From the NCBI GenBank assembly GCA_009838625.1, contig VXRG01000039.1, positions 401 through 64,400 on the forward strand: a stretch of DNA of 64,000 nt, given 5' to 3'. The notes beneath the pieces were generated by a model, which made no database searches, had not been told where the DNA came from, and saw only the letters and a program-made list of their open reading frames with translations. Each line of letters begins with the position of its first letter. Position 1 is the first letter of the stretch. A program made the translations under genes and the position numbers. Below are positions 11,492 to 47,920 of the stretch, in pieces. This DNA comes from Caldilineaceae bacterium SB0664_bin_27 (GTDB taxonomy: Bacteria; Chloroflexota; Anaerolineae; Caldilineales; Caldilineaceae).

Positions 11492-11568
11492 TCAGCTGTA
11501 AAAGGAGTGAGAGATGTTATCTCATCTCTCACTCCTCTTCGCTCACTCCTGTCTGAAGGGGGATCACC

Positions 11569-12360: not shown

Positions 12361-12399
12361 AAAAGCGATCTGTTTCCGCAGACCAAAAACGAAGAACGA

Positions 12400-12948: not shown

Positions 12949-12967
12949 GTTGCGGCAGTGAGCGTCC

Positions 12968-13456
12968 TCACGCCTCCGCTTCCGCCTCGTCGGGCCGGTT
13001 CTTACACAAAATCTCCCAGTTGCCGCGCTGGCAGACCTCATCCTTCTGGTTCAGCACCTCCATCCTGAAGGTCACTACCCCGCCGCCCATCCGCCGCATC
13101 GGCTTCTTCTCCCGCACCGTCGCCCGCAGCCGCACCGTGTCCCCGATCAGCACCGGCCGGCGGAACTGCCACTCCAGTTGCATGAAAGCCTGAACAGTGC
13201 CCTCCATGAACCCCATCCGCACCGCCAGCCCGCTCGCGATACTCAGCACCAGCAGCCCGTGAGCTATCCGCTCCCCGAACATCTGCTCCTGGCTGTAATG
13301 CAAGTCGGTGTGGATCCGGTTCCAGTCCCCCGACAGCGCCGCAAAATTGACAATGTCCGTCTCGGTGACCGTGCGGCCGACGCTCTCGCACCCGTCACCT
13401 TCCGCAAACTCCTCAAAGTAAAGCCCCATCGGGGGCTGCATCGCTCGCGTACCCAT
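12968..13456 (-). CDS. MaoC-like (R)-specific enoyl-CoA hydratase / dehydratase
   Basis: Hot-dog fold signature FAALSGDWNRIHTD...FGERIAHG. Confidence 0.8.
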   Translation of the reverse strand: MGTRAMQPPMGLYFEEFAEGDGCESVGRTVTETDIVNFAALSGDWNRIHTDLHYSQEQMFGERIAHGLLVLSIASGLAVRMGFMEGTVQAFMQLEWQFRRPVLIGDTVRLRATVREKKPMRRMGGGVVTFRMEVLNQKDEVCQRGNWEILCKNRPDEAEAEA

Positions 13457-23400: not shown

Positions 23401-23556
23401 TTCCCAGCCAATCCGGGCAGGGATGGCAGCAACTGCCGCTATTGCGACTTTAAGAATCTCTGCCCCACCCGCCGTGAGTGGCACTGGCGGCGCAAACGCA
23501 ACGATCCACGCCTGTCCGCCTACGTAGCGATGGCCGACGAGGAGGCAAGCCGATGA
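20434..23556 (+). CDS. addB: AddB-like helicase-nuclease subunit (PD-(D/E)XK nuclease with iron-staple Cys cluster; no Walker A seen)
   Basis: C-terminal GKIDRIDL...LVLDYKTG nuclease motif. Cys ligands WATCPFRYF plus CRYCDFKNLC. Stop overlaps the addA start (ATGA at 23553-23556). Confidence 0.75.
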   Translation: MQQSPTHVVHLEQAQERLKRLLRDHQAEDRFAPATVVVPTPYAGLYLRRAFGRSGLVNVRFIPLARLAELLGAPSLADAGRSPLKPAIESAAVRRVAGEAEGELEPFRTHPSFHSSLRKTFRDLRPAAPDALSGLERLGGVSGETVRLYTRYRDRTRAYYDREALAEAAAEAVRTGRAGAALDSLGRVIAYLPRTLTPAEQRLFDALRDAQNCETILAATGDPEADTVLPKTAAQPPASSRPTPPQTQLLVASDTGEEVRNIVRSVAAAVHAGAPFHRIAILYWQREPYAALIAEQLTAAGIPIAGPSTETLAATPVGRMLTGIVDLAGGDLPREEVMRWLTSCPVKAASDRYSPSRWDAVSRDAGVVAGIEQWRDRLANFAKSRQRTAASQDEERSEGEENELAQSAAEAWALRSFVLRLHETLNRAGESLTWAALVNWSNELINHYLDEDSLPPVEQDNLDTLKTALQELAILDTVEESADLDAFRTALDEALNRAAARAGALGEGLFVGSVRLAAGMRFDKVYLVGMVEGLVPPQLSDDPLVPHSERERVGLPLRSTAVERYDYLAAAASGRTRVLTYARGNNIAQREQHPSRWFLEEATRLYGSSVYPTMLSNARDLARLREQPWFEEVVSAQHGINTVAASQPADIHDYDLHRLSQWRQLGNPIGAHHLASSEPVLSRALEMQQARIAAPLTLWDGDLSSASSAGGRTGPSNPEPFSPTRLQTWATCPFRYFLANELGIAAPEQPEELATISALEKGSLLHTILERFIRDTQQQSAIPAPDESWSEDQRRRLFQIAAEEFRNAEQGGVTGKPLLWELARNEMLSDLDRFLKEDAKLRKKHGVSPHAVESAFGLSDNEDHAALDAVDWSSDKTGALRFRGKIDRIDLSPSGDTALVLDYKTGGTSGYANMNRDPLQRGKLLQLPVYGLAAQQLLDDGVDVRVAYWFVTEKGKFATRPSNPKTLEEMLDAFSDVVGAITGGIGARLFPANPGRDGSNCRYCDFKNLCPTRREWHWRRKRNDPRLSAYVAMADEEASR

Positions 23557-26500
23557 GAGCTCTCTCCGACCAGCCGGCACGCGACGCAATTCTGGAACAC
23601 CTCGACGATAATATGGTCGTCGAAGCCGGCGCGGGCACCGGTAAAACACGCAGCCTCGTCGATCGCGTCGTCGCCCTCATCAAGTCCGGACGGGCAAACC
23701 TGGGCGGGATCGCCGCCATCACCTTCACCGAGTTGGCCGCGGCTGAGCTGCGCGCCCGCATCACAGAGAACCTTGAACTGGCCGCCGACAACCCAGGCCT
23801 GCCCCAGGACCAGCGGGAGCGCTGCCAGCGCGCCGTGGCAGAACTCGACCAGGCCTCCATTCAGACGCTGCACAGCTTCGCCGGCAGTCTCCTGGGCGAG
23901 CGTCCGCTGGCAGCAGGCCTGCCGCCGGGCTTCACCATCCGCGACGAGATCGAGGCCGAGATCGCATTCGAAAACCGCTGGGCAGCATGGCTGGACGCAG
24001 CCCTCGACGACCCCGAGGCGCAGCAGGCCCTCCGCCCCGCCCTGGCCGCAGATATGACCCTTGACCACATGCGCAAGATCGCGGACAGTTTTCACAATAA
24101 CTACGACCTGCTCGCCGCTGCCTCATTCGCAGCGCCTTCATCCCGGCAGTCTGAAGACGAGCAGCCGCCGGAACTGCTCCCGGTGCTCGAACTGCTGCGC
24201 AGCTTTACGCTCGATTACGCCCGCGAACGGAGGGACGCCGGCCAGGTCGAGTTCCTCGACATGCTCGTCCTCGCACGCGATCTTCTCCGGGACAGTCTCG
24301 CTGCACGCGACCACTTTCGCGCTCGTTTCACCCACATCCTTATCGATGAAATGCAGGATACCGACCCGCTGCAGGCGGAAATCGCCCTGTTCCTGGCCGA
24401 AGAGGCCTCCGATCGCACAAACCCCGACGACCGTCCCAGGGACTGGCGCAAGGTGCAGCCCGCTGCCGGTAAACTCTTCATCGTCGGCGACCCCAAACAG
24501 TCGATCTACCGTTTCCGCCGCGCCGACATTCAACAGGTCGAACTGATGCGACAGGCGGTCGGCGGAGAAAACGTCCTGCTCCAACAGAACTTCCGCTCGC
24601 TTTCCCCTGTCATCGACTGGGTCAACCACATCTTCAGCCAGTGGATGCAAGGCCAGGCGCAAGCCGTCTATGCGCCCCTCGTCACCGGCGCGCAGGACGG
24701 CCGCCCGCCCCCCGTCCGCATCATGGGCGGCGAAGTCGAAGGGCTCATAGGCGTCGTACGCCGCCAGGAAGCCGAAGCCATCGCCAATGGCGTCCGGACG
24801 GCCATGGAGGAGGGCTGGCAGGTCCGTTCGGAGGAAGAAGAAGGCGTCCTGCGCCCTGCCGTCTACCAGGACATCTGCGTTTTGATGCCGCGCCGCGCCG
24901 GCTTTGACGCCCTGGAGATCGCATTCGAAGAAGCGGGCATCCCCTTCCGGCTCGAAAGCGCCTCCCTCATCTACAACACGCAGGAGGCGCGCGACCTGCT
25001 CAACTGCCTCGCCGCCATTGACGATCCGACCAACCCCGTAGCGGTCGCAGCCGCGCTGCGCTCCCCCGCCCTCGCCTGCTCCGATGCCGACCTGCTGACG
25101 TTTGTCGAAAAGGGCGGCCGGTTCGACTACCTCGCCCAGGACTGTCCCCCGTCCGGTTGCGTCGCCGACGCACTGGCCGTCCTGAGAAAGTTCCACGAAT
25201 GCCGCAAATGGACCGCCCCGGCGACGCTCATCGAGCAGTTTGTGCGTACGTGCCGGCTCCGCGAACTGGCCCTCAACGAACGCTATTCGCGCGGTCGATG
25301 GACGCGTTACGGCTTTCTGATAGACCGCGCTCGCGCCTTCGCCGCCACAGGAGAAGCCTCCCTGCGCGCATTCCTCGCCTGGACCGAACGCCAGCGCGAA
25401 GAACGCGTACGTGCGCGTGAGACCGTCGTCCGTGAGTCCGATGCCGGCGCAGTCAGCGTAATGACAATCCACGGCGCCAAGGGGTTGGAATTCCCCATCG
25501 TCTTCCTTGCCGGGTTGAACGCGACAAGAGGCCCCAATCCCGATCCCGTGCTTTTCGATCGGAAGAGCGGTCGGATCGAAGCAAAAGCCTCTCTCCAAAC
25601 GGCCGGATATCAAGAGCTGGCCGACTTCGAAAAGGAGCGCGCGGAAGAGGAGCACGTGCGGCTGGTCTACGTCGCCGCGACCCGCGCCCGAGATCACCTC
25701 GTCGTCAGCCTCTACCACAAAGCAGGGAGCAAGAAATCTGCGGCCGCCCACATCGATTCGTTCATGCAGGGCGCAGATCATCTCTGGCAGCGATTCGATC
25801 CCCCGGCAGTCCCCGCACCGTCCGTTCCGGTTTCCCCCGGTGAAGCAGCGGCCGACGATGATACCCCCACCGCGCGCGAACGCTGGCAGCAGCAGAGGCG
25901 CGAGCTCTATGCAGCCCGCAGCCTGCCCATCTCCGCGGCCGCCACCCGTCTCGCCCGGTATGAGCAGGACGAGAAGGAGGAACAGGACGTCCCCGACGAA
26001 CCCTGGCGCCGCGGTCGCGCCGGGACCAATTTCGGTCGCGCCGTTCACGCCGTGTTGCAGGTTGTCGATCTGCACAAGGGTAGCGACCTCGAGAAAAACG
26101 TGCAGGCGCAAGCCGCGGCCGAGGGTGTGCCTGAGCGAGCGGATGAGATCGGACGCCTCGTACAACGCGCGCTCGACAGCTCCCTCGTGCAGCGCGCGCT
26201 GGCATCGAAGCGCTGGTGGCGGGAGGCGCCTGTGGCCGGCCCTGTCGGCGACGGCATCGTCGAAGGGTTCATTGACCTCCTCTTTGAGGAGGAGGACGGC
26301 TTCGTGATCGTGGACTTCAAGACCGACGCCGTCGGCTCCGAAGAAGAGGTCGAACAGGTGATGGCGCGCTACCGTCTGCAGGGCGGGGCCTACGCGCTCG
26401 CTCTGAGCAAAGCCGCCGGAGTCAAAGTGAAGGAGGTCTCGTTTCTTTTCCTCGAACCGAATCTTCAGAAATCCGTTGACAACCTCCCGCAGGCGCAGGA

Positions 26501-26558
26501 GGAAGCCGAGAGGGCGGCGCTGGCCTTCCTTACAAGTCCGCCATCAGCAACGCACTAG
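23553..26558 (+). CDS. addA: AddA/UvrD-type ATP-dependent helicase-nuclease subunit
   Basis: Walker A EAGAGTGKT, DEMQDT, FIVGDPKQSIYRFRRAD, TIHGAKGLEFP, YVAATRARDHL. C-terminal RecB-type nuclease GFIDLLFEE..IVDFKTD. Confidence 0.85.
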   Translation: MRALSDQPARDAILEHLDDNMVVEAGAGTGKTRSLVDRVVALIKSGRANLGGIAAITFTELAAAELRARITENLELAADNPGLPQDQRERCQRAVAELDQASIQTLHSFAGSLLGERPLAAGLPPGFTIRDEIEAEIAFENRWAAWLDAALDDPEAQQALRPALAADMTLDHMRKIADSFHNNYDLLAAASFAAPSSRQSEDEQPPELLPVLELLRSFTLDYARERRDAGQVEFLDMLVLARDLLRDSLAARDHFRARFTHILIDEMQDTDPLQAEIALFLAEEASDRTNPDDRPRDWRKVQPAAGKLFIVGDPKQSIYRFRRADIQQVELMRQAVGGENVLLQQNFRSLSPVIDWVNHIFSQWMQGQAQAVYAPLVTGAQDGRPPPVRIMGGEVEGLIGVVRRQEAEAIANGVRTAMEEGWQVRSEEEEGVLRPAVYQDICVLMPRRAGFDALEIAFEEAGIPFRLESASLIYNTQEARDLLNCLAAIDDPTNPVAVAAALRSPALACSDADLLTFVEKGGRFDYLAQDCPPSGCVADALAVLRKFHECRKWTAPATLIEQFVRTCRLRELALNERYSRGRWTRYGFLIDRARAFAATGEASLRAFLAWTERQREERVRARETVVRESDAGAVSVMTIHGAKGLEFPIVFLAGLNATRGPNPDPVLFDRKSGRIEAKASLQTAGYQELADFEKERAEEEHVRLVYVAATRARDHLVVSLYHKAGSKKSAAAHIDSFMQGADHLWQRFDPPAVPAPSVPVSPGEAAADDDTPTARERWQQQRRELYAARSLPISAAATRLARYEQDEKEEQDVPDEPWRRGRAGTNFGRAVHAVLQVVDLHKGSDLEKNVQAQAAAEGVPERADEIGRLVQRALDSSLVQRALASKRWWREAPVAGPVGDGIVEGFIDLLFEEEDGFVIVDFKTDAVGSEEEVEQVMARYRLQGGAYALALSKAAGVKVKEVSFLFLEPNLQKSVDNLPQAQEEAERAALAFLTSPPSATH

Positions 26559-36092: not shown

Positions 36093-37556
36093 ATGAATTT
36101 GCAAGCCGGACTTTTGCGCCGTACCAGGCAAGTGAATGACGCAGGTAGAGAAAAGAGTGGGTTGCGCCTGAGTCCCCTCACCTTCCTGATCGTCCTCCTT
36201 CTAGTTGTCGCAGGATGTACGACCGATGCCGACGGCAATATCGTCGCCCCCGTCGTTGCCCCTGCGCCCGCCGGCGACTCGCAGCCCAACATGCATCGAG
36301 GTGTCCCTGTCGGCTTTACCGAAGAGGGATACCCCTTCCGCGGCGATCCGAACGCGCCTATCACCATCTATGAATACAGCGACTACGAATGCCCTTTCTG
36401 CGCCCGTCACGTGATCCAGACCGAACCGGCCCTCCTGGCCGCATTTGGCGAGAGCGGCGCCGTGAAATTCGTCTTCCGCGATATGCCCCTCTCCTCGATT
36501 CATTCCAACGCTCTTGCCGCGGCCATCGCCGCCAACTGTATGGCGGAACAGGATATCGTCCTCTTCTGGCAGATGCACGACAGGATCTTCCGGACTCAGA
36601 AAGAATGGGCGCCCCGCGAAGAGGCCCTGTCCTTCTTTGCCGAACTGGCCCAGGAGTTGGGCGCCAACACCACCCAATACGGGTCCTGCATGGCAAATAA
36701 CGAGACCCAGCTGGCAAAGGTGAACGAAAGCCTGGCTGAAGCCCAGTCCTTCGGCTTTACCGGCACGCCCAGTTTCCGCTTCGTGCGTGAAGAGACCGGC
36801 GACGCTTTTTCCCTTTCCGGGGCTCAGCCATACGATACCTTCGACAACTGGATCGGGACGATCGCGGCCGGCCGTACGCCCCAGGGCGCGGCTCAGGCGC
36901 AGCAGCAACAACAACAGCAACAGCAGGGAGACGGCGGATTGCCCTTCTGGGCTACGGCGGAGGGCTTGAAGCCCGACCCGGACCGACCCGGCTTCACTTT
37001 GGCCGGTGACATCTACAAGGGCAGTAGCGACGCCCCGATTGTTGTCGTTGAATTCAGCGACTTCCAATGCCCTTACTGCAGCCGCCACGCCCTGACAACG
37101 CAGCCGGTTCTGGATGAAGAGTTTGTCGCCCGCGGTGAGGTTATGTGGGTATTCAAGCACTTCCCCATCGAGAATATCCATCCCCATGCCTTTTCCGCTT
37201 CGGTCGCGTCCGAGTGCGCGGCCGAACAGGAAGCCTTCTGGCAGTTCCATCATCGCCTCTTCGTCGATATGGATCAGTGGTCTCGCTCCGACAACACCAT
37301 CTACTTCATGGAGTTGGCGGCTGAATACGAGTTGGACACCGACGCCTTTTCAACCTGCCTGGCAGAGGACGCGCCCGCGCAGGCAGTGCAGAGCGATATG
37401 CGAGACGGGGCACCCTTTGTCCGCGGTACCCCCACCTTCGTCGTTCTTGTCGGCGGCGAGGGGCGGCTGATCCCCGGCGCGCTGCCTACAGATCAGTTCA
37501 TGGCCGCACTCTCACAGATGCTCGCCGAGCTTGCCACCACGAACAACGACGGTTAG
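36093..37556 (+). CDS. lipoprotein with two tandem DsbA/thioredoxin-like domains joined by a poly-Gln linker
   Basis: AAGGAGG RBS and lipobox VVAGC. There are two CxxC sites, each in the same context (YSDYECPFCARH and FSDFQCPYCSRH). A Q9 run separates the domains. Confidence 0.8.
   Translation: MNLQAGLLRRTRQVNDAGREKSGLRLSPLTFLIVLLLVVAGCTTDADGNIVAPVVAPAPAGDSQPNMHRGVPVGFTEEGYPFRGDPNAPITIYEYSDYECPFCARHVIQTEPALLAAFGESGAVKFVFRDMPLSSIHSNALAAAIAANCMAEQDIVLFWQMHDRIFRTQKEWAPREEALSFFAELAQELGANTTQYGSCMANNETQLAKVNESLAEAQSFGFTGTPSFRFVREETGDAFSLSGAQPYDTFDNWIGTIAAGRTPQGAAQAQQQQQQQQQGDGGLPFWATAEGLKPDPDRPGFTLAGDIYKGSSDAPIVVVEFSDFQCPYCSRHALTTQPVLDEEFVARGEVMWVFKHFPIENIHPHAFSASVASECAAEQEAFWQFHHRLFVDMDQWSRSDNTIYFMELAAEYELDTDAFSTCLAEDAPAQAVQSDMRDGAPFVRGTPTFVVLVGGEGRLIPGALPTDQFMAALSQMLAELATTNNDG
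36900..36926 (+). repeat. (CAG/CAA)9 trinucleotide tract encoding Gln9
   Basis: cagcagcaacaacaacagcaacagcag read in frame within the DsbA-like gene. Confidence 0.9.
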
Positions 37557-38142
37557 CCGTTTTCTCATCCCTGTCCCCCATTCATCGCCTCCGTTATCGA
37601 CGAATCCCCAGCCCCTGGTGTTCCGTGCCAAGGGCTTTGCAAATGCCTGATTCGTGACGGCGCCTCCAACGCGCAGCTTCAGCGAAGATCACAACTTCAA
37701 ACGAGATCCACAGGCGTAACGTCCGTTGCGGGCGGGTGGGTGTTCACTCCCAATACTGACTGACCGGGTCTGTATTTCATTGGCGGATCGTAGGCAAATC
37801 GCCCAAAAGCAGTGCGCTGGATTCTCGTCGTTAATTATCGCATTTCAGCACTTGCCTGCTGCCCGAAACTCTGAGAAATCTCTGAAGTCAAGAACCCAAA
37901 AGACGCCCGCGGGCCCGGCCTCTCCGCTCACAATTCCAGTGTAACCACCAGTCAACTCTCTCCGAAACGCGCAGCCTGTCCAGGGACGTCTGGCCCTCTG
38001 CCAGGCACCCGGAGTCCAGGCCCCGAAACGGGCCCAGGACTTGGGCCTGCCTCTTTTAATGCCAATCTGCGCTGTGATACAATTTTTAACAGAAAGAAAA
38101 GGAGTCGATGCGCGCGCATTTCGCTCACTGCAAGTCTATGCC

Positions 38143-38172
38143 GCCGAACGCCGCGGGAACAGGGCGTTCGGC
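38143..38172 (+). promoter_or_regulatory. perfect 10-bp stem-loop in the leader of the vWA gene
   Basis: gccgaacgcc (38143-38152) / 10-nt loop / ggcgttcggc (38163-38172). It is flanked by two copies of cgatgcgcgcg (38106-38116 and 38228-38238) and lies downstream of an extended -10-like TGATACAAT (38075-38083). Confidence 0.4.
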
Positions 38173-38183
38173 GCGTTTGACCT

Positions 38184-41100
38184 GTGGGGGACTGTATCTC
38201 TGCCAGCAAAGCAGGGGAACGCGGAGCCGATGCGCGCGTTTGCTTCTCTCTTGGAACTGGTAGAGCCAGCAGTCCGTTGATCAGTTGTTTGCCGCCGTGC
38301 AATAGCCACAGGTGTCAGGAGCGTCATCTGCCCGGTAACGTTTACCAGAAGTCTCTGCTCATCCGCCGCCTCCCACAGGGCTGGGACCGGAGGCCTTGGG
38401 CCGTGTTTGTCTGTCTGCTAAGTGGGTTTCTCTTCCTGTTGATCACGGGCCATGGCGCCGCGCCTGCACACGCCGGGACCCGACCTGCGCTGCCGCGGCA
38501 GTCCACGTCCGGGGCCGCCCCCATCGACGTAATCGTCATCCTCGATGACTCCGGCAGCATGGCCACCTGCTGGCCTTGGCCGCAGGGCCAACCTCCCTCC
38601 GGGCCCCCATGCGATGACGCTACTCTTAACGCCCCCAGCGACCCCAACGAACTGCGCTACAGCGCGGCCCGCCTGCTGGTCCATCTCGCCGACAGCGCCG
38701 ACCGCATCGCCGTGCTGCGTTTCGACAGTACCGCCGAGGGCGTCGGCTCGATGAGCCTGTTGCAGGAGGTCGGCAGCGCTGAAAACCGCAGCCGGCTGGC
38801 TGCGTCGCTCCAGTCTCCCGAGGACTATGCCCTGCGCGGCTACACGCGCATGGATTTGGGACTGAAGGAGGCGCTGCAGCTGCTCGAACTTCACGGCGAC
38901 CCTAATCGCAGCCAGTATGTGCTGCTGCTGACCGACGGGGAGCCAACAGCGCCGTTACAGGTCACCGGTCAGCGACAGACCATCACCAATCTACTGGCTC
39001 AGATCGGGGACGCCGGCGCACTGCTCTACCCCGTGATCCTCTGCAATCCCGATGCGGGCTGCGCCGGCGATTTTCTCAAAACCAGCTCTTCGCTCGCGCG
39101 CGAGGCCAAGAGCTCGCAGGACCTCCTGCTCATCTTTAGCGAACTATTCGCCGAAATGAAGTCGGACCGCTCGGTCGTCACCCACCGCAATGTGCACGGG
39201 AACCTGACCGTCTCAATCCGCAAAGCGCATGGCGCCGGCAGCATTGCCTTCGTCAGCCCGCAATCCGCGATCACCGCCGTAGAGCGGGACGGCGCGCCGA
39301 TGCTGACTCAGAGCCTGCTCGCCGACGGCAACATCGACCTAAACGTGGCTGTCGCGCCGCTGGCTGCCGGCGAATGGGTGGCAAAGACGACCGACCTGAG
39401 CAGCTTTGCCGTCGTCCAGGCCGACAGCTATCCTGAGCTCCTTTTCCCGCCTCCCAGCGTACTGGGCAACGCCGCCTCAGCGCGCTACTACCCTGCCGGC
39501 AAGTCGCCTATCATCGTCGTTGCCGGCGCCGGCCCCGCCGTGGACGAGCCGCTGATGCTCAACGGCAATCTGCCCATCGCACTCCTGGGTCAGGACCCGA
39601 TTAGCGGTCGAACGGTCGCCGTCCAGCAGCTTTCCGGCGGCGTGGAAGAGGTTACAGTTCAGTTGGGAGAGGACCGAGAGCCGTTACAGCTGCGGCGCAC
39701 CTTCCGGCTCCAGACCTCGGAGGAGCTGCCCCAAGCACAGGTCTTCTCCCCCTCAGCCAGCAATCCTGGAATCCTGCAAGACGGCAGCCTGCAACTACAG
39801 ATCGGTTTTGGCCCCGGCAGTCAGTTGGATGATCTCCAGGCCGCTGTCTACGTTACCGACCTCGACGGCGGCGAAATCGTCTACCGGAGGCGGATCAGCT
39901 GTGGTGAACATGTCTGCTCCGACGACGGCTTTATGCCGCAGGACGGGCGTGACTACGAAGCGCTCTTCCTGGTGACGGCGGCCATCGATGGAGTCCGTTT
40001 CGGAGACTATGCGCGCACGCTCTTGGAAGTAGAACCGGCGATCTACGTGAAGGGACTGCCGGCCGATATCGATCTGGCCAAGATGCCGCCCGAAGGATGG
40101 CCGCTCACGATCCAGGCCAGTACGGTTGAAGAGATTGGAACGCTGGAGGCGTCGCTGGTCCTGCGCCGGTCCGATACAAGCGAAATCATGCGCGAGGCCT
40201 CTGTAAGTCTTTCCGTAGAGGTGCCCGAAAACGGTATCCAGACGGCGCTTCTGCACGTGGACGGCCTCGACCTGCTGCGCCCGGGCCAGTACGAGGGCCA
40301 ATTGAATCTGTCGGCTCTCAGCCCGGCCGGACTGCCTATGGAGGTACAGGTTCGTCCTGCCCCATCGCTGGCTGTGCTCTTGGACATCCCCCGCTCCCAG
40401 GCACGCATCCAGGTGCAGGAGGCCGACTTCGGCGCGCTGCTCTACGATACATCACCGAATTACCGGCTGGATGAGCAGATCCTGCTGCCCGTCGCCTACA
40501 GCGGGGATACCCCCTTTCGGCTGACGGTTGAACTGGCCGAGAGTAGCTGCAGCGGCCTCACCGCCACTGCTGGTGACCTGCAACCCTTCGAAGCGACGGG
40601 CGACAGCGCGGCTAACTCCGCGGGCTCAGATGGTTTGCAGCCGGCGAACTGGGCGCTGCCGGTTCGCCTGCAAAGCGAAGGGACCATGTCCGCCGGCAAC
40701 TGCCACGGGCTCCTCAGTTTGGCCGGTCCCAGCCAGGACTTCGATGTCCTGTCCGCACACTCCTCCTCAGGCGCGGGTCCCTCCTCAGAGGCGACAGTGC
40801 CCTTCCGTCTCCAGATCCGCGATGTGGAGTGGGGTGTCGCCGGCGCGCTCGATTTTGGCGATCTGGGGCGGGCGGGCGAAAGAGCGACGGAAACGCTCTT
40901 TCTGCGCTTTAACGGAAAAACGCCTTTTGTGCTTGAAATCGTTGGGCTGACCGCATCGGGAGAGGCTGGCAGCGGCGTGATGAATTTGGATGAACTTTTC
41001 CTGGAAGCCCCGCCGGTCGAAGTCAACGGTTTGCCTGATGAAGAAGGCTTCTTCGAAGTCCCCGTCATCCTCATCGCCCGCAAAGACCTGCCCAAAGATG

Positions 41101-41858
41101 CTCTGCGCGGCTCCTTTTATAGTGGAGTGCTGCAGCTGAGCATTGTCGGCCTGGCCGGCGAGATGAGGTCTGTCGATATCAGTTTCCGCAGTCCAACCCT
41201 CTATCAGCGCTACGTTGAGTGGTGGTTGCGTCCGTTCTACACCTTCCCGCTGGTTTTCTGTAGCGGACCTGTGCTGCTCCTGGGGTTGCTCATCGTGGTG
41301 GCGCGTGCCCGCACTCGCGGGTACAATACGGATGACGACGAAGATCCGGGAGTGATTCTGCCTGGGCAGGATTCCCCTCTTGCGCCTGGGTACGCTGCCG
41401 CCCCCGGCAGTCCGGACGGCTGGCATCACGCTAGCGGGTCGGAAACCGCATTCGTCACGTCGAATGTGGCCGGGGGTTCGGCGTACGCGTCTTACCCACC
41501 GCCCGTCCCTGGACCGGAACCGGCGGCAGGTTCGCCAGGCAATTCCGCTGCTTTTGAGAATATCGCTGATACCTCTCCTGAGCGTTTTGCCGGTTCCGGC
41601 AGTTCGGACAGTTGGCAAGGCGCCGGTGAGGGAACGCAAAAGTCCGCTTGGGACACAGCCTGGGACCAGAGAGGCTGGGGGCCGGACCCTTACTCTTCCT
41701 CAGCGTCCGGGGACTACGGACGGACAGAACAGCCCGGCGACAACTCGAACTGGTCGTCTCCCTCTTCGGGCGATGGGGCGTTTAGCGACGAGCACAACAG
41801 TTCATCCGCCGGCGCGGGTTCGGCTGACCCATGGGGCAGCCCGCGCGACAGCTTCTAG
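38184..41858 (+). CDS. large type-I-like membrane protein: signal/anchor, vWA domain with MIDAS, about 700-aa beta-rich ectodomain, TM, disordered cytoplasmic tail
   Basis: MIDAS IVILDDSGSM plus LLLTDGEPT. Hydrophobic leader WAVFVCLLSGFLFLLITG...AHA. C-terminal TM LVFCSGPVLLLGLLIVVA followed by RARTRGY and a Ser/Gly/Pro/Asp/Trp-rich tail. The true start is uncertain (GTG at 38184; no in-frame ATG before the signal peptide). Confidence 0.75.
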   Translation: MGDCISASKAGERGADARVCFSLGTGRASSPLISCLPPCNSHRCQERHLPGNVYQKSLLIRRLPQGWDRRPWAVFVCLLSGFLFLLITGHGAAPAHAGTRPALPRQSTSGAAPIDVIVILDDSGSMATCWPWPQGQPPSGPPCDDATLNAPSDPNELRYSAARLLVHLADSADRIAVLRFDSTAEGVGSMSLLQEVGSAENRSRLAASLQSPEDYALRGYTRMDLGLKEALQLLELHGDPNRSQYVLLLTDGEPTAPLQVTGQRQTITNLLAQIGDAGALLYPVILCNPDAGCAGDFLKTSSSLAREAKSSQDLLLIFSELFAEMKSDRSVVTHRNVHGNLTVSIRKAHGAGSIAFVSPQSAITAVERDGAPMLTQSLLADGNIDLNVAVAPLAAGEWVAKTTDLSSFAVVQADSYPELLFPPPSVLGNAASARYYPAGKSPIIVVAGAGPAVDEPLMLNGNLPIALLGQDPISGRTVAVQQLSGGVEEVTVQLGEDREPLQLRRTFRLQTSEELPQAQVFSPSASNPGILQDGSLQLQIGFGPGSQLDDLQAAVYVTDLDGGEIVYRRRISCGEHVCSDDGFMPQDGRDYEALFLVTAAIDGVRFGDYARTLLEVEPAIYVKGLPADIDLAKMPPEGWPLTIQASTVEEIGTLEASLVLRRSDTSEIMREASVSLSVEVPENGIQTALLHVDGLDLLRPGQYEGQLNLSALSPAGLPMEVQVRPAPSLAVLLDIPRSQARIQVQEADFGALLYDTSPNYRLDEQILLPVAYSGDTPFRLTVELAESSCSGLTATAGDLQPFEATGDSAANSAGSDGLQPANWALPVRLQSEGTMSAGNCHGLLSLAGPSQDFDVLSAHSSSGAGPSSEATVPFRLQIRDVEWGVAGALDFGDLGRAGERATETLFLRFNGKTPFVLEIVGLTASGEAGSGVMNLDELFLEAPPVEVNGLPDEEGFFEVPVILIARKDLPKDALRGSFYSGVLQLSIVGLAGEMRSVDISFRSPTLYQRYVEWWLRPFYTFPLVFCSGPVLLLGLLIVVARARTRGYNTDDDEDPGVILPGQDSPLAPGYAAAPGSPDGWHHASGSETAFVTSNVAGGSAYASYPPPVPGPEPAAGSPGNSAAFENIADTSPERFAGSGSSDSWQGAGEGTQKSAWDTAWDQRGWGPDPYSSSASGDYGRTEQPGDNSNWSSPSSGDGAFSDEHNSSSAGAGSADPWGSPRDSF

Positions 41859-42011
41859 TCTCTGGTTTTTTTGCGCCGCTGCCGGAGCCTTTGGCCGACC
41901 TCAACTCTTCCGGCAGCTGGCGGCAACCAGATAGCTAGGCAAGCTGCGCAAACATGCACAGTAATGGAATAATAAATACGGGCTATAGAGAGTTCAAGAG
42001 AGAAGCCATAT

Positions 42012-44489
42012 ATGGAGCAGAACGGGGCGCCTTTTATTAGTGAAAAGCCAACAATCTATCCGACCCTCGTGGTCGGCGTAGGCGGTATGGGCACCAACGC
42101 TGTACGGGCCGTCAAACGGCGCCTGCGCAAAGCCTGGGGCGGCGAAACGCTGCCGGCGATGATTCAACTGCTGGCTCTGGATACGGAACCGCTGATCAAC
42201 CGGCTCGATCAGGAGCCCCTCTATGCCGATGAATCGGCCTACATGGGCAAATTTGACGCAACCCGCCTCGTCGATAACCTCGAAAACCATCCCGAAATCG
42301 CCCGCTGGTGGGACTACCCATCGATCCCTCTTGGCTATATCCATAACGGCGCCAAACAGCTGCGGCCCATCGGGCGGCTCTCCTTCTTCCGCAACTACGT
42401 CACCTTCAAGAGGCTGTTGGAGACGAAATACGCCGCCCTGGACAAGATCCGCGATCTGGAGATGGCGCAGAATCGCCGCTTTCCCGTGATGAGCAACTAT
42501 CAGCTCGTCTATGTCGTCAGCAGCCTCTGCGGCGGTACCGGCGCCGGCATGTTTATGGACGTGGCGCACCGAGTGCGCGCCCTCGTGCGCAGCAACGCTC
42601 GCGTCGTCGGCATCTTCTTCCTGCCCGACGTGCTAGAAGAAGAGATCAACAGCGACCTGCAGCGCCGCCGCATCAAAGCCAACGCCTACGCCGCGCTCAA
42701 AGAACTGAACTACTTCCAGGAAACGCAGCAGTTCCAGGAACTCTATCCCAGCGAACAGCGGGCACTGCCCGACACACCCTACGCACCGTTCGACTTTATC
42801 TTTCTGGTCGGGCGCACCAACCGCGACGGCCGCAGCCTGTCTCGTAAATCCGATGCTGAAAACCTGGCCGCTCATCTGATTCAACTCACAGCCATCAGCC
42901 ACCTGAGCAGCGAGATTCTCGGGCTGGAAGTAAACGTCGTGCGGGAACGCATGTCCGGTAGCGTCGCCGCCGCCGAGGTAGTTAACGACCGCCGCACCGG
43001 TCGGCCTCCGGCGAAGGGAAACTACCTGGTCTACAGCAGCTTTGCCGCTTCCGCGATCGTCGCGCCGGACGAGTCACTGGTCAACTTCTGGCAACAGGCA
43101 TTCCTGGCAGACTGCATGCGGCGCCTGGCCGCCGGGCCGGAGCTCAACGACCCGCGCCAGCCTATTTCACCGCAAACACGCCAGAAGGTTATCACCGCCT
43201 GGCAGGGACTCCTGGCCAGGATGCGCTCCCGCTATCTCTCGTTGGACAACGACCGGCTGGAGGAGATGGCCGAGGAGGTCGAGGAACAACGCGGCGCATG
43301 GCTCGGTTTCAAGACCGCGGTCGACGAAACTTTTCGCCAGGTGATCCTCGATACAGGACTGCGCGGCGCACTGGAGCTGGCCGACCTGCTGGCGCCGTTG
43401 AATCCTTCCACCGCGCCCAACGAATCGCTGATAAAGCAAAGACTTTTCCTGCTGAACAACCACCCGGTCATGGAAGAGGACCGCGCCCGTTGGCGCTCGT
43501 TGCTGGCCCAGCAAGGAGGCGCGGCGGAACAGATCGGCCAGATTGCCGGCGGACTGGGCGACCTCATGCTCGCGGCCTTCAACCCCCGCCAGGCCCGCGA
43601 TCGCGCCCGAGACATGCGCCAGCGCAAAGCCCGCTCCCGTCTTCACCAGCGCCGCGACATCCTGGAACGAATCCTCGTCGAGCGCCTCTTCGCATACGGA
43701 ACGCAGATGCGGGAGCTTTTCCGCTCACAGATAGACTATACCGGCAGCGCGCTGGGCCGGGCTAATCACGCGGCAAGGCGGGCCGCCGAACGCATCGACC
43801 CCCGCATCTCCGACGGCACCGCCAGCACCAACACGTACTATGAACTGGAGACCGGCGCCGTCGGGCGCGACTATCTGCAACACTTCTATCGCAACGCAGC
43901 CCAGGTCGTCTACCCCAGCGACTGGGAGGTCCTGCTCGGGCCCGTAATCGATCGCACCCTGAACTTCGGACGGGCGGTCAGCGGTGAGGAGCTCTTTGCG
44001 AACCTCACCAACGCAATCGCCACCGAAAGGGGGCTGCTGGGCAGGGTTCTGCAGTGCGTCGACATCCGTCACATTATCGGTGTCCAACATGGCGAAGAGA
44101 CCCAGCAGGCCCGGCCTCTGCCCAACAACCGCGTCCAGCAGTGGCTGGACCGTCTGAACCCCTACATCCGCTGGGATTCGGACCGCTTCAGCTTCCACGA
44201 CGGCAATCTGGAGCACATCCGCCTGGCGGCCACACCGTCAACGCGCGAAGATGATGCCCAGTTGGCGATGGCGATGGTCGGACAGGAGGACATGAAATGG
44301 ATACCCACCGGCGACACAGGACGCATGGACGCCGTCTGGATCGTCCACGGCCTGCCTGTGACGCTCATCGACCGCCTTGACGAGTTTCGGGCACAATATG
44401 AAAACAAACTCGATTTCCCCGCCCGCGAGGAGTTTCATCTCCATCCCGCCTGGGTCGACCTGCCCGAAATCACTGAAAACGATCTCTAG
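42012..44489 (+). CDS. tubulin/FtsZ-like GTPase (Pfam 'Tubulin-like' type) with a long alpha-helical C-terminal extension
   Basis: T1-loop-like TLVVGVGGMGTNAVRAV (compare FtsZ GVGGGGxNAV) and T4 signature-like VVSSLCGGTGAGMFMDVA (compare GGGTG(S/T)G). 825 aa. Confidence 0.75.
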   Translation: MEQNGAPFISEKPTIYPTLVVGVGGMGTNAVRAVKRRLRKAWGGETLPAMIQLLALDTEPLINRLDQEPLYADESAYMGKFDATRLVDNLENHPEIARWWDYPSIPLGYIHNGAKQLRPIGRLSFFRNYVTFKRLLETKYAALDKIRDLEMAQNRRFPVMSNYQLVYVVSSLCGGTGAGMFMDVAHRVRALVRSNARVVGIFFLPDVLEEEINSDLQRRRIKANAYAALKELNYFQETQQFQELYPSEQRALPDTPYAPFDFIFLVGRTNRDGRSLSRKSDAENLAAHLIQLTAISHLSSEILGLEVNVVRERMSGSVAAAEVVNDRRTGRPPAKGNYLVYSSFAASAIVAPDESLVNFWQQAFLADCMRRLAAGPELNDPRQPISPQTRQKVITAWQGLLARMRSRYLSLDNDRLEEMAEEVEEQRGAWLGFKTAVDETFRQVILDTGLRGALELADLLAPLNPSTAPNESLIKQRLFLLNNHPVMEEDRARWRSLLAQQGGAAEQIGQIAGGLGDLMLAAFNPRQARDRARDMRQRKARSRLHQRRDILERILVERLFAYGTQMRELFRSQIDYTGSALGRANHAARRAAERIDPRISDGTASTNTYYELETGAVGRDYLQHFYRNAAQVVYPSDWEVLLGPVIDRTLNFGRAVSGEELFANLTNAIATERGLLGRVLQCVDIRHIIGVQHGEETQQARPLPNNRVQQWLDRLNPYIRWDSDRFSFHDGNLEHIRLAATPSTREDDAQLAMAMVGQEDMKWIPTGDTGRMDAVWIVHGLPVTLIDRLDEFRAQYENKLDFPAREEFHLHPAWVDLPEITENDL

Positions 44490-44563
44490 CACTGTATTGA
44501 CAACCATTCCTGCCGTAGATCGGTGGACCTGTACCGACCCCGGCAATCTGTTATAAAATAAGT

Positions 44564-44597
44564 CACTTGGCGCCGAACGCAACCCGGCAGCCAAGTG
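44564..44597 (+). promoter_or_regulatory. 8-bp perfect stem-loop between the two tubulin-like genes
   Basis: cacttggc (44564-44571) / 18-nt loop / gccaagtg (44590-44597), 27 nt upstream of the ATG at 44624. Confidence 0.35.
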
Positions 44598-44623
44598 CTG
44601 GAAACCGAAATCTAGAAACTACC

Positions 44624-47600
44624 ATGATTCCCGGCGCAACCCGCAGCCGAGCTGCAATACTATGTCTTGGTGGATGGGGTCTGCAGACGATGCTCCATTT
44701 GGCGCCGCGTCTGCACTCCGCCCAGGAACAGCGAAACGCTACCGGCGCCGACGGACCCGATCTGACGCGCATCACCCGCTTTGCCGCCCTCCTGCCGTCC
44801 GATCAACTCAATCATCAGGACGAAATTTCTCTCAATCTGTTCACCCTGCGTGATAACCGTCTCCCGCCCTTCTATCTCGAACGGCTGCTCACCGAACTTA
44901 TGCGGTCGCCGCCCCCTGCCGTCCCTGAACTGCCGCAAACCACCAACCACTGGCGGCGGGCAACGAGCCAGCGGCGGGCAAGCCTGTTGCTCGCGTCGGC
45001 CGCAGACACGCTGCACCCGCTCCAATGGCAAGACGCAACATCTTCCCCGTATCCACCTGGGTCGGTGGGAGACTCGCCCACAGCCGCAAAGCCTTCTCGC
45101 AGAGGTCTGCCCTGGCCATTCCGCAGATCGAACAAGGATGCTGACACCGGCGGTGTTCCCGGCAGCGCAGAGAGCCCTCCCGCATCGCCCACAGCCCCGC
45201 CCGATACGCCAACGCGGCGGCATGCATTTCGTGCCGCGATTAACGAAGGCGGCAGCATCGCCCATCTTGTCGCCTCCAATATCATCGATCCCATCCGCGC
45301 CGACACCCTTGTTCCCGGCGATCCCTTCGTACAGACGACTCTGTATGTGATTGCACCCCTCTATGAACCGCTGACGTCGGCACTGATCTGGCCAACGATC
45401 GCGCACCAGCTCAACTATCTGGGCCAGCGTCACATCGCCCAGGTCGTCGGCATCTTCGCCGCCGGCAGCTACGCCACCGACACCAATCGCACTATCGAGG
45501 ACGCCTCCTGTTACGCGGCGCTGGCTGAATTGGAAGCGTTCACCGGCCTGCGTCGCGCCAACCTCAAACAGGTCATCTCTTCCATCCGGAAAGGCTCCAA
45601 GGCACGGGGCACACTGCCAGATGAGTGGCTGGGACGACCGCTCTTCGACCGCATCTATCTGGTAGATCGGGAAAAGAGCAATCAAGGCCTGGCCCGCAAC
45701 AGCTACGAACTCTCCGTCCTCGTTGGCAACACCCTTCAGGCGCTCATCGCCGCCGATGGAGCCGCCTACATCGATGAACAGGTCGGTATTGATCTGCGCA
45801 ACGCCAGCGAACGGCCCTACAGCCTGCTCGGTGCAGCCGCCGATCATGTGCCGCTGGACTATATCTTCCGGGCCGCGCAGCAGCACGAGGGCAAGCGGCT
45901 CGTACGCGAGCAGGTCCTGCTCCAGCCTGGAAGCGCAGACGGTTCAACCGCCGCCGGTTCACCCTCGACCGGGACTGCCACCCACTTGGAGCCACTGGCC
46001 TCGCTGCAGCAATTGGGCGCAACCTCGCATCAAGCACTGAACCGGCTCATCGGGCAGATGCCCGACCTGTTCAATGAGCTGAATCCCGAAACGATCCAGG
46101 ATCTTGCAGTCCATTCGGGATATGTGCTGCCGTCGGCGACTGCGCGCAAGCTGCGCGGTCTCAATCCGGTCCGCTGGCAGGCCGCCTTCGACAATCAGTT
46201 CCAGAGTGTGATGGCCCAGTCTGACGAGGACTTCGGCGCCGGCGCTCTGGATACGGCTTGGGGACTGGCCGCCCTGGACGAAGACGGTATACCTGTTGAC
46301 CCCACCGACAAACGCTTCCTGCCGGCCGTTGAGCAGCAGATGCGCGCCCACCTGCTCTCACTGATTGGCTCCGAGCCGTCAGGACTCCTGCACGCGCGAC
46401 GCCAACTCCACCAGTGGCTGTTTGAATTGGAGCAGGAACGACTCTGGCCGTCGTTGGCAACAGGGGACGCCGCCGCCTTTACTCCTGCTGATGCAAACCG
46501 GGTTGAACGACAATTGGAGCTGCGCGACTGGCGCAACCGCTATCGACGCACGCTCGCCGATAAACCTTCTCTGTTCGGATCATTGACGCGGGTGCTCGGT
46601 CTGCTGAGTGGTATCGTTCTGCTGACACTTCTCTATCTGTTCAGCTCCGGGTTGGTCGGCAGTGCGGACGATATCGTCACCGTGCAAAACGATCCCTCCG
46701 TACTTACCCAGCTGATGACCGGCGCGTCTCTGGACGCAGTCGTCGATTTCATCGGCAACGAAGCCAACGCCGCCACATTCATCGGGCTGATGATCGGCGC
46801 CTTTCTCGGCGCGATCACCTCCTATCGGAGGAGGGCGCAGCGCGTGCAGAAGCTGCGGCGCGAGCGGGTCAATCTGGCCTGTTCTGAACTGACCGCCCGT
46901 CTGCAGGACAGCGTTTGGCGGGGAATGGGCCGCGTCCACGATCGTCTGGAACAAATGCTGAACCAGATGGACAATGTTCTCGAACAGACCTGCCGATCTT
47001 TGCAGGACTGGTCTGTCAGCGAAAAGATGCCGCCCCTCCCGCCGGAGGATGCGATCACCTCCCATCTGTACCGGCCCCATCTCAGCCAGAATATGTGGGA
47101 ACGCTGCCTGGCCTTCATGCGCGGCCGCCAGGATGTTGATGCCGGCATCCAGGCGGCTGGACCTCCCCATTCCGCCGCGAGTGGCAACAGGGGAGGGGAA
47201 GGGCGCCTGCGCGTCATCTGGACAGCGCCCCAACGTCTCGAACGGCTAGCTGCGCAGTTCACCGGCCAGGAAGTGTCGTCCCGCCCTCTTACGGATATTC
47301 TGGCTTCTTATGTTCGCGAGTGCGCTCAGGCTGCCGTCGGCGAAAGCCAGACATCCCTCCCCGAGCAGGAGCCGGGCGGTGGCAGGGCCGCGCTCGACAG
47401 CGAAACCGAAATGGCGCACAAGGCCTTCGTACGCTCGCTCGCACAGGAGTACAATCTGGAGCACCTGCTCTGGCGCGACACGACCTCGGCAGAAGGTTTT
47501 GCCTCTCTCTATCCGGATGGGGAGTTCACGCCGATCTCTACCGCCACCCTGCGCTATCTGGAGACTATGTGGAATGCCGCAAAGCCCTCCGCCAACTACG

Positions 47601-47920
47601 ACGTATCGGACCGGCTTGCAGCACATGGGCTGCCAGTGGAGTTCGCAGCGGTCTCCGGCGCCCCCGACAGCGACCTGACCGAAGACGTCTTGCAAAGCCT
47701 GCGCATCCCCCGTCTGTTGACCGGCAATCCTTTTCAGATCGCCTTCGTACGCACGCTGCACGGTCTGGAGCTAAGAGATCTGGGAAGCATGACTCGCTAT
47801 CTGACCGAATTGGGCCGGATGGACAGCGCCTCACGCCAGCAGATCCTGCTCACGGACGCCATCCACGCCGAGATGTATAACCAGCAAGACCCGCGCAGCT
47901 CCCGCTCCGCCTGGTCATAG
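44624..47920 (+). CDS. degenerate tubulin-like paralog with low-complexity insert and two TM helices
   Basis: Collinear with the preceding protein. Matched blocks (this protein vs the preceding one): AAILCLGGWGLQT vs LVVGVGGMGTNA; VVGIFAAGS...CYAALAELEAF vs VVGIFFLPD...AYAALKELNYF; LFDRIYLVDRE vs PFDFIFLVGRT. The T4 motif is replaced by APLYEPLTSAL. TM helices are LGLLSGIVLLTLLYLF and FIGLMIGAFLGAI. Start preferred at ATG 44624. Confidence 0.7.
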   Translation: MIPGATRSRAAILCLGGWGLQTMLHLAPRLHSAQEQRNATGADGPDLTRITRFAALLPSDQLNHQDEISLNLFTLRDNRLPPFYLERLLTELMRSPPPAVPELPQTTNHWRRATSQRRASLLLASAADTLHPLQWQDATSSPYPPGSVGDSPTAAKPSRRGLPWPFRRSNKDADTGGVPGSAESPPASPTAPPDTPTRRHAFRAAINEGGSIAHLVASNIIDPIRADTLVPGDPFVQTTLYVIAPLYEPLTSALIWPTIAHQLNYLGQRHIAQVVGIFAAGSYATDTNRTIEDASCYAALAELEAFTGLRRANLKQVISSIRKGSKARGTLPDEWLGRPLFDRIYLVDREKSNQGLARNSYELSVLVGNTLQALIAADGAAYIDEQVGIDLRNASERPYSLLGAAADHVPLDYIFRAAQQHEGKRLVREQVLLQPGSADGSTAAGSPSTGTATHLEPLASLQQLGATSHQALNRLIGQMPDLFNELNPETIQDLAVHSGYVLPSATARKLRGLNPVRWQAAFDNQFQSVMAQSDEDFGAGALDTAWGLAALDEDGIPVDPTDKRFLPAVEQQMRAHLLSLIGSEPSGLLHARRQLHQWLFELEQERLWPSLATGDAAAFTPADANRVERQLELRDWRNRYRRTLADKPSLFGSLTRVLGLLSGIVLLTLLYLFSSGLVGSADDIVTVQNDPSVLTQLMTGASLDAVVDFIGNEANAATFIGLMIGAFLGAITSYRRRAQRVQKLRRERVNLACSELTARLQDSVWRGMGRVHDRLEQMLNQMDNVLEQTCRSLQDWSVSEKMPPLPPEDAITSHLYRPHLSQNMWERCLAFMRGRQDVDAGIQAAGPPHSAASGNRGGEGRLRVIWTAPQRLERLAAQFTGQEVSSRPLTDILASYVRECAQAAVGESQTSLPEQEPGGGRAALDSETEMAHKAFVRSLAQEYNLEHLLWRDTTSAEGFASLYPDGEFTPISTATLRYLETMWNAAKPSANYDVSDRLAAHGLPVEFAAVSGAPDSDLTEDVLQSLRIPRLLTGNPFQIAFVRTLHGLELRDLGSMTRYLTELGRMDSASRQQILLTDAIHAEMYNQQDPRSSRSAWS

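Follow-up and report, generated by a model that had tools for sequence, protein, structure and literature searches.

The stretch of DNA analyzed here, hereafter called the window, comprises 64,000 nucleotides (nt) of Caldilineaceae bacterium SB0664_bin_27 (assembly GCA_009838625.1, contig VXRG01000039.1, positions 401 to 64,400 of the forward strand), for which the nearest genomes are metagenome-assembled genomes (MAGs) of Caldilineaceae with at most 98% protein identity. Three large open reading frames (ORFs) are located on one strand (+) at positions 38184..41858, 42012..44489, and 44567..47920, and were designated g1, g2, and g3, respectively (together, the triad). A previous annotation made from the letters of the DNA, referred to below as the sequence-only reading, had described three large co-directional genes separated by 153 nt (g1-g2) and 134 nt (g2-g3), and both the ORFs and the gaps were recovered. 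According to the comparisons described below, g1 encodes a membrane protein with an extracellular vWA domain, g2 encodes an FtsZl1/Tubulin_2 protein, and g3, by well-supported sequence relationship, encodes a membrane-inserted paralog of g2 with a degenerate GTP site. The genes were assigned as follows:

38277..41858, + strand: g1, type I membrane protein with a vWA domain and metal ion-dependent adhesion site (MIDAS), from the ORF, the family profile, and ortholog alignments

42012..44489, + strand: g2, cytoplasmic FtsZl1/Tubulin_2 protein of 825 amino acids (aa), predicted GTP binder

44624..47920, + strand: g3, membrane-anchored degenerate FtsZl1 paralog of 1098 aa, predicted pseudo-GTPase

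The longest ORF of g1 extends from GTG 38184 to 41858 (1224 aa); alignments with orthologs at 76-83% identity begin at residue 32, and TTG 38277 is therefore the more likely start (1193 aa). The start of g3 with ortholog support is ATG 44624 (orthologs begin at MIPGATRSRAAIL), preceded by GGAG 9 nt upstream. In a simple scan of the + strand, no terminator-like site was detected in the g1-g2 or g2-g3 gap, and the GC content was level throughout the region.

Two domains were delimited in g2:

42066..43112, + strand: Tubulin_2 domain of g2, with T1 GVGGMGTN, T4 SSLCGGTGAGMF, and the segment SHLSSEILGLEVNVVRER

44031..44408, + strand: C-terminal domain of g2 common to g3 (hhalign, g2 residues 674-799)

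The g2 protein matched the Pfam profile PF13809 (Tubulin_2) with 205.3 bits (threshold, 27) and an E-value (E) of 2.1e-60, residues 19-367 being aligned with positions 1-353 of the 356 positions of the profile. The sequences GVGGMGTNAV and GGTGAG, taken by the sequence-only reading as FtsZ-like T1 and T4 motifs, were both read in the translation. T1 (GVGGMGTN), T4 (SSLCGGTGAGMF), and the following SHLSSEILGLEVNVVRER block are each at least 90% conserved in 67 orthologs, and the Pfam profile Tubulin (PF00091) was aligned on the T4 region with E 2.9e-4. By these sequence features, g2 is a bona fide and unambiguous Tubulin_2/FtsZl1 protein with intact T1 and T4 loops. As a lead, the conserved GLEVNVVRER segment of the SHLSSEILGLEVNVVRER block, located after the putative H7 of g2, may be T7-like; the T7 loop of FtsZ, GLINVDFAD, resembles this block. 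A transmembrane (TM) helix was found neither in g2 of the window by hydropathy nor in any of the 67 orthologs. A search of the PDB with the g2 profile returned nothing significant, so g2 has no close relative of solved structure. The AlphaFold2 (AF2) model of g2, obtained from an alignment of low diversity, was poor (predicted local distance difference test (pLDDT) score, 55.7); its top Foldseek matches were CetZ, FtsZ, tubulin, and TubZ, with a probability of 0.97-1.0, but with E 0.015-0.2 and a root-mean-square deviation (rmsd) of 7-16 Å. Separately, a conserved acidic and aromatic peptide, DFP..EEFHL.PAWV.LPEIT, was observed at the C-terminus of g2 (window positions 44340-44486), and by analogy it recalls the partner-docking C-terminal peptide of FtsZ.

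For comparison of g2 with g3, profiles were prepared from close homologs and distant g3 representatives, and the proteins were divided into domains before alignment with hhalign. The N-domains (g2 120-376 and g3 196-434) were aligned with a probability of 97.5%, E 7.7e-12, and a score of 91.5, and the C-terminal domains of about 125 aa (g2 674-799 and g3 934-1066) with a probability of 96.8%, E 3e-10, and a score of 85.6; the extreme N-terminus including T1 (g2 16-92 and g3 8-94) gave a probability of 44% and E 2.3e-4. None of twenty control alignments (cross-domain, against the vWA or stalk region of g1, column-shuffled, and reversed) had an E of 0.1 or below or a score above 21. The relationship is not visible at lower depth: nothing significant was obtained by BLASTP of g2 against g3 (best E, 1.4), the first hhalign comparison with shallow alignments of 24 sequences gave a probability of only 7%, and the g3 of the window alone scored 18.8 bits against Tubulin_2, under the threshold of 27. 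Nine of 24 g3 relatives matched Tubulin_2, and no other Pfam family was found among them; the distant relative P0351 reached 30.2 bits, above the gathering threshold, and another was aligned over profile positions 2-344. From the two domain alignments in the same order, the clean controls, and the Pfam and structural matches, it is therefore well supported at the sequence level that g3 is a true divergent paralog of g2, collinear with it, and a member of FtsZl1/Tubulin_2 by sequence relationship. The sequence-only reading had likewise held g3 to be collinear with g2, devoid of T4, and provided with two TM helices, and all three points held. The features of g3 are as follows:

44645..45925, + strand: tubulin-like N-domain of g3, with the T1 remnant GGWGLQ, EPLTSALIWP at the position of T4, and a disordered insert (aa 136-192)

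46592..46825, + strand: TM hairpin of g3, two helices at aa 657-675 and 714-734 (hydropathy)

47423..47821, + strand: C-terminal domain of g3, homologous to that of g2 (hhalign, E 3e-10)

The T4 signature GGTG(A/S)G is absent from g3; at this position L-x-EPLTSALIWP is found instead, with at least 90% conservation, and T1 is shrunk to GGWG. No GG.G.G motif was found in the g3 of the window or in three distant g3-like proteins checked. From these changes at T4 and T1, we infer that canonical GTP binding has been lost in g3. The protein consists of a globular N-domain, helices, the TM hairpin, an 85-residue helix, and the C-terminal domain. The hairpin is present in all 74 full-length members of the g3 family, and TM2 is followed by a basic stretch (median, 7 K/R within 25 residues); both large parts of g3 are therefore predicted to face the cytoplasm. 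The outer loop is 36 aa in the clade of the window, which is related to sponge MAGs, and about 8 aa in most relatives; the loop of the window (positions 46649-46762, aa 676-713) appears as a lineage-specific insertion on the outside. The AF2 model of g3 had a pLDDT of 64.8, with most of the N-domain at 70-90, and its low-rmsd Foldseek matches (4-6 Å over 180-200 columns) were only OdinTubulin, TubZ, FtsZ, and tubulin, with a probability of 0.96 or less and E 0.2-2. The g3 family is small: at E < 1e-3, a search of 1.84 billion proteins gave 188 representatives, and a further search, for which the profile was built from distant g3-like proteins, yielded only 8 proteins.

In g1, the following features were assigned:

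38394..38450, + strand: signal peptide or N-terminal hydrophobic segment RRPWAVFVCLLSGFLFLLITGHGAAPAHA of g1 (hydropathy, aa 71-89)

38526..39083, + strand: vWA domain of g1, with the MIDAS residues DDSGS, YTR, and LLTDGEP and conserved Cys pairs (ortholog conservation)

41244..41300, + strand: TM helix of g1, aa 1021-1039 (hydropathy score 2.49, segment conserved)

41325..41855, + strand: cytoplasmic low-complexity tail of g1, 177 aa, with conserved Trp motifs

An RR n-region and an AHA cleavage-like site were read off the sequence of the signal segment. The motif DDSGS...TDGEPT is present in the translation, conservation over 68 orthologs is 90% or higher for the MIDAS residues (DDSGS, T, D) and for four close Cys pairs, and the MIDAS D/S/S/T/D residues are invariant in the alignment of the vWA region (A3). 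As a single sequence, g1 remained below threshold in Pfam (VWA_2, 24.6 versus 27 bits; VWA, 19.3 versus 23.8 bits) and returned nothing significant from the PDB. The vWA profile of the g1 family matched solved extracellular vWA domains with E 2e-5 to 2e-4, comprising CLCA1 (6pyo, 2e-5), Gram-positive pilus tip adhesins, collagen VI, and Plasmodium TRAP. By its profile and its DxSxS...T...D metal site, g1 is a vWA protein, and the vWA partners in the distant triads described below carry Pfam VWA matches. The TM helix is followed by RARTRGY, in accordance with the positive-inside rule. The tail consists to 68% of S, G, A, P, D, and E; across 64 orthologs it is 74-185 aa long with a median of 5 Trp, and its sequence is poorly conserved. 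The motifs kept are W..W....WG and a C-terminal (D/N)PW, with DPW or NPW terminal in 10 of 11 sampled tails, a pattern that is typical of short linear docking motifs, and such a role is suggested here. Taken from its sequence, the architecture of g1 is thus a MIDAS vWA domain and a Cys-paired, beta-rich stalk of about 700 aa outside the cell, a single membrane crossing, and a disordered cytoplasmic tail; hydropathy and conservation both agree with the MIDAS vWA ectodomain, one TM helix, and inner tail of about 180 aa given by the sequence-only reading.

The leader 5′ of g1 is about 720 nt long (window positions 37557-38276). It contains a hairpin that resembles a terminator (38029-38049), a strong AAAGGAG ribosome-binding site followed by ATG 38108, which opens an ORF of about 51 codons in a frame different from that of g1, and a direct repeat, GATGCGCGCG, at 38107 and 38229. 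No Rfam match was obtained over the whole window, including this leader.

The proposal that the three genes form a unit was examined in relatives. With the g3 profile, 78 Caldilineaceae loci were fetched, of which 69 included enough upstream DNA, and the g1-g2-g3 order and strand were kept in 66 of these 69 loci. In the 35 most distant Caldilineaceae loci, median identity was 68% for g2, 46% for g1, and 36% for g3; the higher identity of g2 would fit a self-associating or multi-partner core protein. In addition, five far more distant g3-like proteins directly follow a vWA gene (about 1030-1110 aa) and then a Tubulin_2 gene (about 830-1060 aa). The genes around these five triads differ, and one triad has nothing else beside it. 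Because the triad recurs in five distant operons amid differing genes, it is regarded as a conserved core, and the co-conservation anticipated from the sequence-only reading was thereby borne out.

Some of the distant loci are described individually. In L079 (757-14579), the triad is placed in a tight larger operon with HTH_17 and a HerA/DUF87-like ATPase. The operon of L080 (95-22488) is also tight and includes an AAA ATPase, a radical SAM enzyme, PP2C, a Ser/Thr kinase, and FHA-FtsW(RodA)-transpeptidase(PBP). At the locus of P0351, the triad is accompanied by an AAA ATPase and a radical SAM enzyme and adjoins three TIR-domain genes, a C39 peptidase, and a transposase. A vWA/Tubulin_2 operon of another type was found in L083 (823-9937), with a vWA-PKD protein (815 aa), a Tubulin_2 protein (1054 aa), a 749-aa protein, and a transglutaminase-like protein; no detectable relation to g3 was found for the 749-aa product of its third gene, considered as a hidden paralog.

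FtsZl1, which equals Pfam Tubulin_2 (PF13809), was defined by Makarova and Koonin (2010, Biol Direct 5:33, PMC2875224), who reported a vWA gene in most FtsZl1 operons, often membrane-associated and with an intact MIDAS, accompanied by lineage-specific membrane proteins, and who proposed membrane remodelling and membrane-associated complexes for vWA/FtsZl1 operons. The triad of the window belongs to these operons by its adjacent co-directional vWA gene, intact MIDAS, and membrane-associated partners, and like them it encodes, directly after the vWA gene and beside membrane proteins, a large FtsZl1 protein that contains a coiled-coil and a C-terminal region of its own. The Caldilineaceae form differs in being without the kinases, P-loop GTPases, and OmpA-like genes that are frequent elsewhere.

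In the part of Additional file 5 of the same paper (PMC2875224) covered here, the genes Cagg_1317 (vWA, 1017 aa), Cagg_1316 (FtsZl1, 763 aa), and Cagg_1315 (1083 aa) of Chloroflexus aggregans are listed, together with a triad Ava_4733/4732/4731 in Anabaena; Cagg_1315 is labelled 'COG0576 GrpE', and third genes are given there as GrpE or 'coiled-coil'. The order and sizes of Cagg_1317-1316-1315 match g1-g2-g3 of the window. The protein P0374 (1084 aa) is a member of the g3 family (E 9e-15) that has a C-terminal GrpE-type match and is encoded after vWA and Tubulin_2 genes; its length, this match, and the gene order suggest that it is related to Cagg_1315. Since apparently the same triad is listed for Chloroflexus aggregans in that part of the file, the three-gene layout is considered to be already catalogued, and the suggestion of the sequence-only reading that the architecture might be undescribed has to be withdrawn. 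In part 1 of 4 of the Additional file 5 table, no operon with two FtsZl1 genes is listed, and a third gene that is an FtsZl1 paralog with a degenerate GTP site and a TM hairpin was not recognised in the covered text of PMC2875224 or in the later literature searched. Relative to the catalogued layout and the literature searched, what is new here is the nature of the third gene: an FtsZl1 paralog, well supported by the profile comparisons, that is inserted in the membrane and has a degenerate GTP site.

In the literature searched, no functional study of this vWA/FtsZl1 triad operon, no solved structure or biochemistry of FtsZl1/Tubulin_2, and essentially no genetics were found. In a 2023 phylogenetic study (PMC9871819), Tubulin_2 proteins were used solely as an outgroup, and the only phenotype found for the family is that of Synechocystis sll0445 (Tubulin_2) mutants, in which phototaxis is impaired and photosystem II (PSII) fluorescence is altered (PMC9880817).

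Upstream of the triad, the following gene is located:

36093..37556, + strand: DsbA-like tandem-thioredoxin lipoprotein gene of the Rcas_1661 family (NCBIfam NF041057, 263 bits)

This gene had been called unrelated, but 49 of 57 related Caldilineaceae loci have kept it upstream of the triad and co-directional with it, so it is not clearly unrelated. It is absent from the distant triads. Given the four close Cys pairs conserved in the g1 ectodomain, the DsbA-like gene may aid folding of this ectodomain; by sequence it may be a helper for the disulfide-rich g1 ectodomain or reflect inherited synteny, and it is not a core member. The description of the locus as self-contained was also too strong, given this syntenic gene in Caldilineaceae and the position of distant triads inside larger operons. 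Synteny of the downstream DUF1385 gene (opposite strand in the window) and ABC-transporter genes is lost in relatives. The neighbours in the window are housekeeping genes, comprising AddAB-like helicase-nucleases, CysNC, a PAPS-reductase-family protein, a Liv-type ABC transporter, ThyX, and UDP-glucose dehydrogenase; the AddAB-like pair at 20434-26558 (+), two UvrD-helicase/PD-(D/E)XK nuclease genes of about 1030 aa each with an overlap of about 80 nt, is ordinary repair machinery. No NCBIfam match was obtained for g1, g2, or g3.

On this basis, the triad is interpreted as the Caldilineaceae form of the vWA/FtsZl1 module, acting as a three-part membrane-spanning assembly, and a probability of about one half is assigned to this interpretation. 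In such an assembly, g3 would be the membrane-fixed partner with a degenerate GTP site that binds g2 via tubulin-type contacts, C-terminal-domain contacts, or both, and would nucleate or anchor GTP-dependent g2 oligomers at the membrane. The short Trp motifs in the tail of g1 would mediate docking on the g2/g3 assembly; alternatively, the TM helix of g1 would pack against the hairpin of g3. Binding of a ligand or metal by the vWA domain outside could then be coupled to a GTP-regulated assembly state inside, or the reverse, and the output could be local remodelling of the membrane or envelope, or positioning or traction of a surface adhesin. A more specific version, in which g2 and g3 form a tubulin-family heteromer of one GTP-binding and one membrane-embedded degenerate subunit wired directly to the g1 receptor through the Trp-motif tail or the TM helix, is put forward tentatively and would more probably prove wrong than right.

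Several observations weigh against the assembly as proposed. Makarova and Koonin did not succeed in identifying T6-H7 elements in FtsZl1, so that filament formation is uncertain even for g2 (PMC2875224). Both AF2 models are of limited quality (pLDDT 55.7 for g2 and 64.8 for g3), and no Foldseek match reached E < 1e-3. In three loci, a g3-like gene occurs without g1 or g2 within 10 kb upstream, so g3 is separable from its partners or these are extra copies. The distance between g2 and g3 is 0.5-1.5 kb in several loci, and in L043 two opposite-strand ORFs are placed in between; co-transcription is therefore not universal. Finally, because the outer loop of g3 is about 8 aa in most relatives, any contact between g1 and g3 must be in the membrane or the cytoplasm. 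For reference, the solo g3-like genes are located in L050 (9986-13144), L075 (9950-13213), and L078 (about 10451-13204), with unrelated neighbours (a DUF11 surface protein and an M20 peptidase in L050; RNase D-like, Uma2, and trypsin-like proteins in L075).

Other explanations were weighed against the three-part assembly. That g3 is unrelated to g2, with three independent large genes adjacent by accident, could be argued from the BLASTP result, the sub-threshold Tubulin_2 score of g3, and the shallow hhalign comparison, but it is scarcely credible: the deeper profiles aligned two collinear domains with clean controls, P0351 passes the Pfam threshold, and the order is kept in 66 of 69 loci and five distant operons, by which accidental adjacency is effectively refuted. 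A surface adhesion or gliding apparatus, analogous to a bacterial focal adhesion, in which the vWA domain binds a substratum or cells and g2/g3 position it or transmit force, is a special case of the three-part assembly and does not contradict it. The vWA profile of g1 matches domains of the adhesin type (pilus tip adhesins, TRAP, collagen VI). Caldilineaceae are filamentous and Chloroflexus aggregans glides; this gliding species carries the triad, according to the covered part of the supplementary table. Myxococcus vWA adhesins are coupled to a cytoplasmic cytoskeleton (PMC9946355, 10.1101/2023.10.19.562135), and the sole experimental datum found for Tubulin_2 is the impaired phototactic motility of Synechocystis sll0445 mutants (PMC9880817). 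Sll0445, however, comes from another operon type with FtsA-like and DivIC-like partners, and no Agl/Glt-like, MotA/TolQ, motor, or proton-channel genes were found in or beside the triad of the window, so that a dedicated apparatus of this kind appears unlikely.

A role in conflict or defence, with the vWA domain sensing an invader or envelope damage, the GTPase pair acting as a switch, and the helical/TM region of g3 permeabilising the membrane in abortive infection, was considered quite improbable. It draws on the distant triads in tight operons with AAA ATPase, radical SAM, HTH_17, and HerA/DUF87-like genes, one of which adjoins TIR genes, a C39 peptidase, and a transposase, and vWA-plus-NTPase combinations are common in predicted conflict systems. 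The Caldilineaceae triad, however, is vertically inherited at a fixed housekeeping locus (66 of 69 loci) with g2 60-99% identical where fully aligned, and such a stable g2 and locus do not resemble defence genes, which are patchy and evolve fast; at the locus of the window, no nuclease, TIR, or other effector was found, and PADLOC-DB v2 gave no match at E <= 0.1 for any of the three proteins. Foldseek weakly matched the helical C-terminal part of the g3 model to the alpha-pore-forming toxins AhlB, SmhB, and YaxB; these matches were rejected as evidence (rmsd above 20 Å, E at least 0.1). The domain order of g3 also mirrors the layout of mitofusin and atlastin, and g2/g3 could accordingly be read as a non-polymerising membrane-remodelling GTPase, like atlastin, mitofusin, or a bacterial dynamin-like protein, that dimerises along or across membranes and so bends, tethers, or fuses them under regulation by g1. 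Membrane remodelling is favoured by Makarova and Koonin, and FtsZl1 may not form filaments (PMC2875224). This explanation is nevertheless doubtful, since the predicted NTPase fold is tubulin-like rather than P-loop/dynamin and the membrane-anchored protein, g3, is the one without the nucleotide-binding loop. Weak Foldseek matches of the g2 model to the stalk regions of MxB, Drp1, and BDLP, which would speak for it, were likewise rejected as evidence (probability below 0.2, rmsd above 24 Å).

FtsZl1/Tubulin_2 is among the most divergent branches of the tubulin-FtsZ superfamily and was described sixteen years ago. The cryptic second FtsZl1 paralog turns the vague association 'vWA plus FtsZ-like' into a concrete three-component hypothesis of a receptor, a predicted active GTPase, and a membrane anchor or nucleator. 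It also corrects the long-standing misannotation of third-gene relatives as GrpE-like, and the g3 family profile can serve to search other FtsZl1 operons for paralogs hidden in a similar way. Should the coupling be real, the triad would provide a new bacterial link between an extracellular adhesion-type domain and a cytoplasmic nucleotide-dependent scaffold; if the heteromer wired to g1 is also true, the triad would represent a tubulin-based counterpart, in prokaryotes, of integrin-to-cytoskeleton outside-in/inside-out coupling and offer the first mechanistic handle on the FtsZl1 branch.

Among known systems, Synechocystis Sll0445-Sll0447 is related through Sll0445, which is in the same Pfam family as g2; its partners are FtsA-like and DivIC-like and, unlike the triad of the window, it has neither a vWA gene nor a second tubulin-like gene. 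Alpha/beta-tubulin and BtubA/BtubB of Prosthecobacter are paralogous pairs of the tubulin superfamily that are encoded together, with one member non-catalytic or non-exchanging in function. By analogy, g2 and g3 are two co-encoded paralogs and plausibly obligate partners. Alpha-tubulin and BtubA/B, however, keep their nucleotide-binding loops, whereas g3 is without T4 and is an integral membrane protein, so that the pair is not an alpha/beta-type heterodimer in which both subunits bind GTP; g2 and g3 are also 2-3 times longer than alpha/beta-tubulin or BtubA/B, and their helical and C-terminal domains are unrelated to Tubulin_C/FtsZ_C. The triad shares with integrin and with the focal adhesions of Myxococcus a link, which in the triad is genomic only, from a MIDAS vWA domain outside the cell to a cytoplasmic nucleotide-dependent protein of a cytoskeleton family. 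No sequence relationship extends past the vWA fold, the partner in the triad is tubulin-like and not actin/MreB, and g1 is predicted to be a single-pass inner-membrane protein, unlike the outer-membrane lipoprotein of Myxococcus or the alpha/beta heterodimer of integrin. The integrin-like and alpha/beta-tubulin-like readings thus remain analogies. The Myxococcus vWA adhesins CglB and CglD, which are coupled to the cytoplasmic Agl-Glt/MreB machinery at bacterial focal adhesions (PMC9946355, 10.1101/2023.10.19.562135), may be regarded as a functional precedent for the outside-inside coupling proposed here, and not as homologous machinery.

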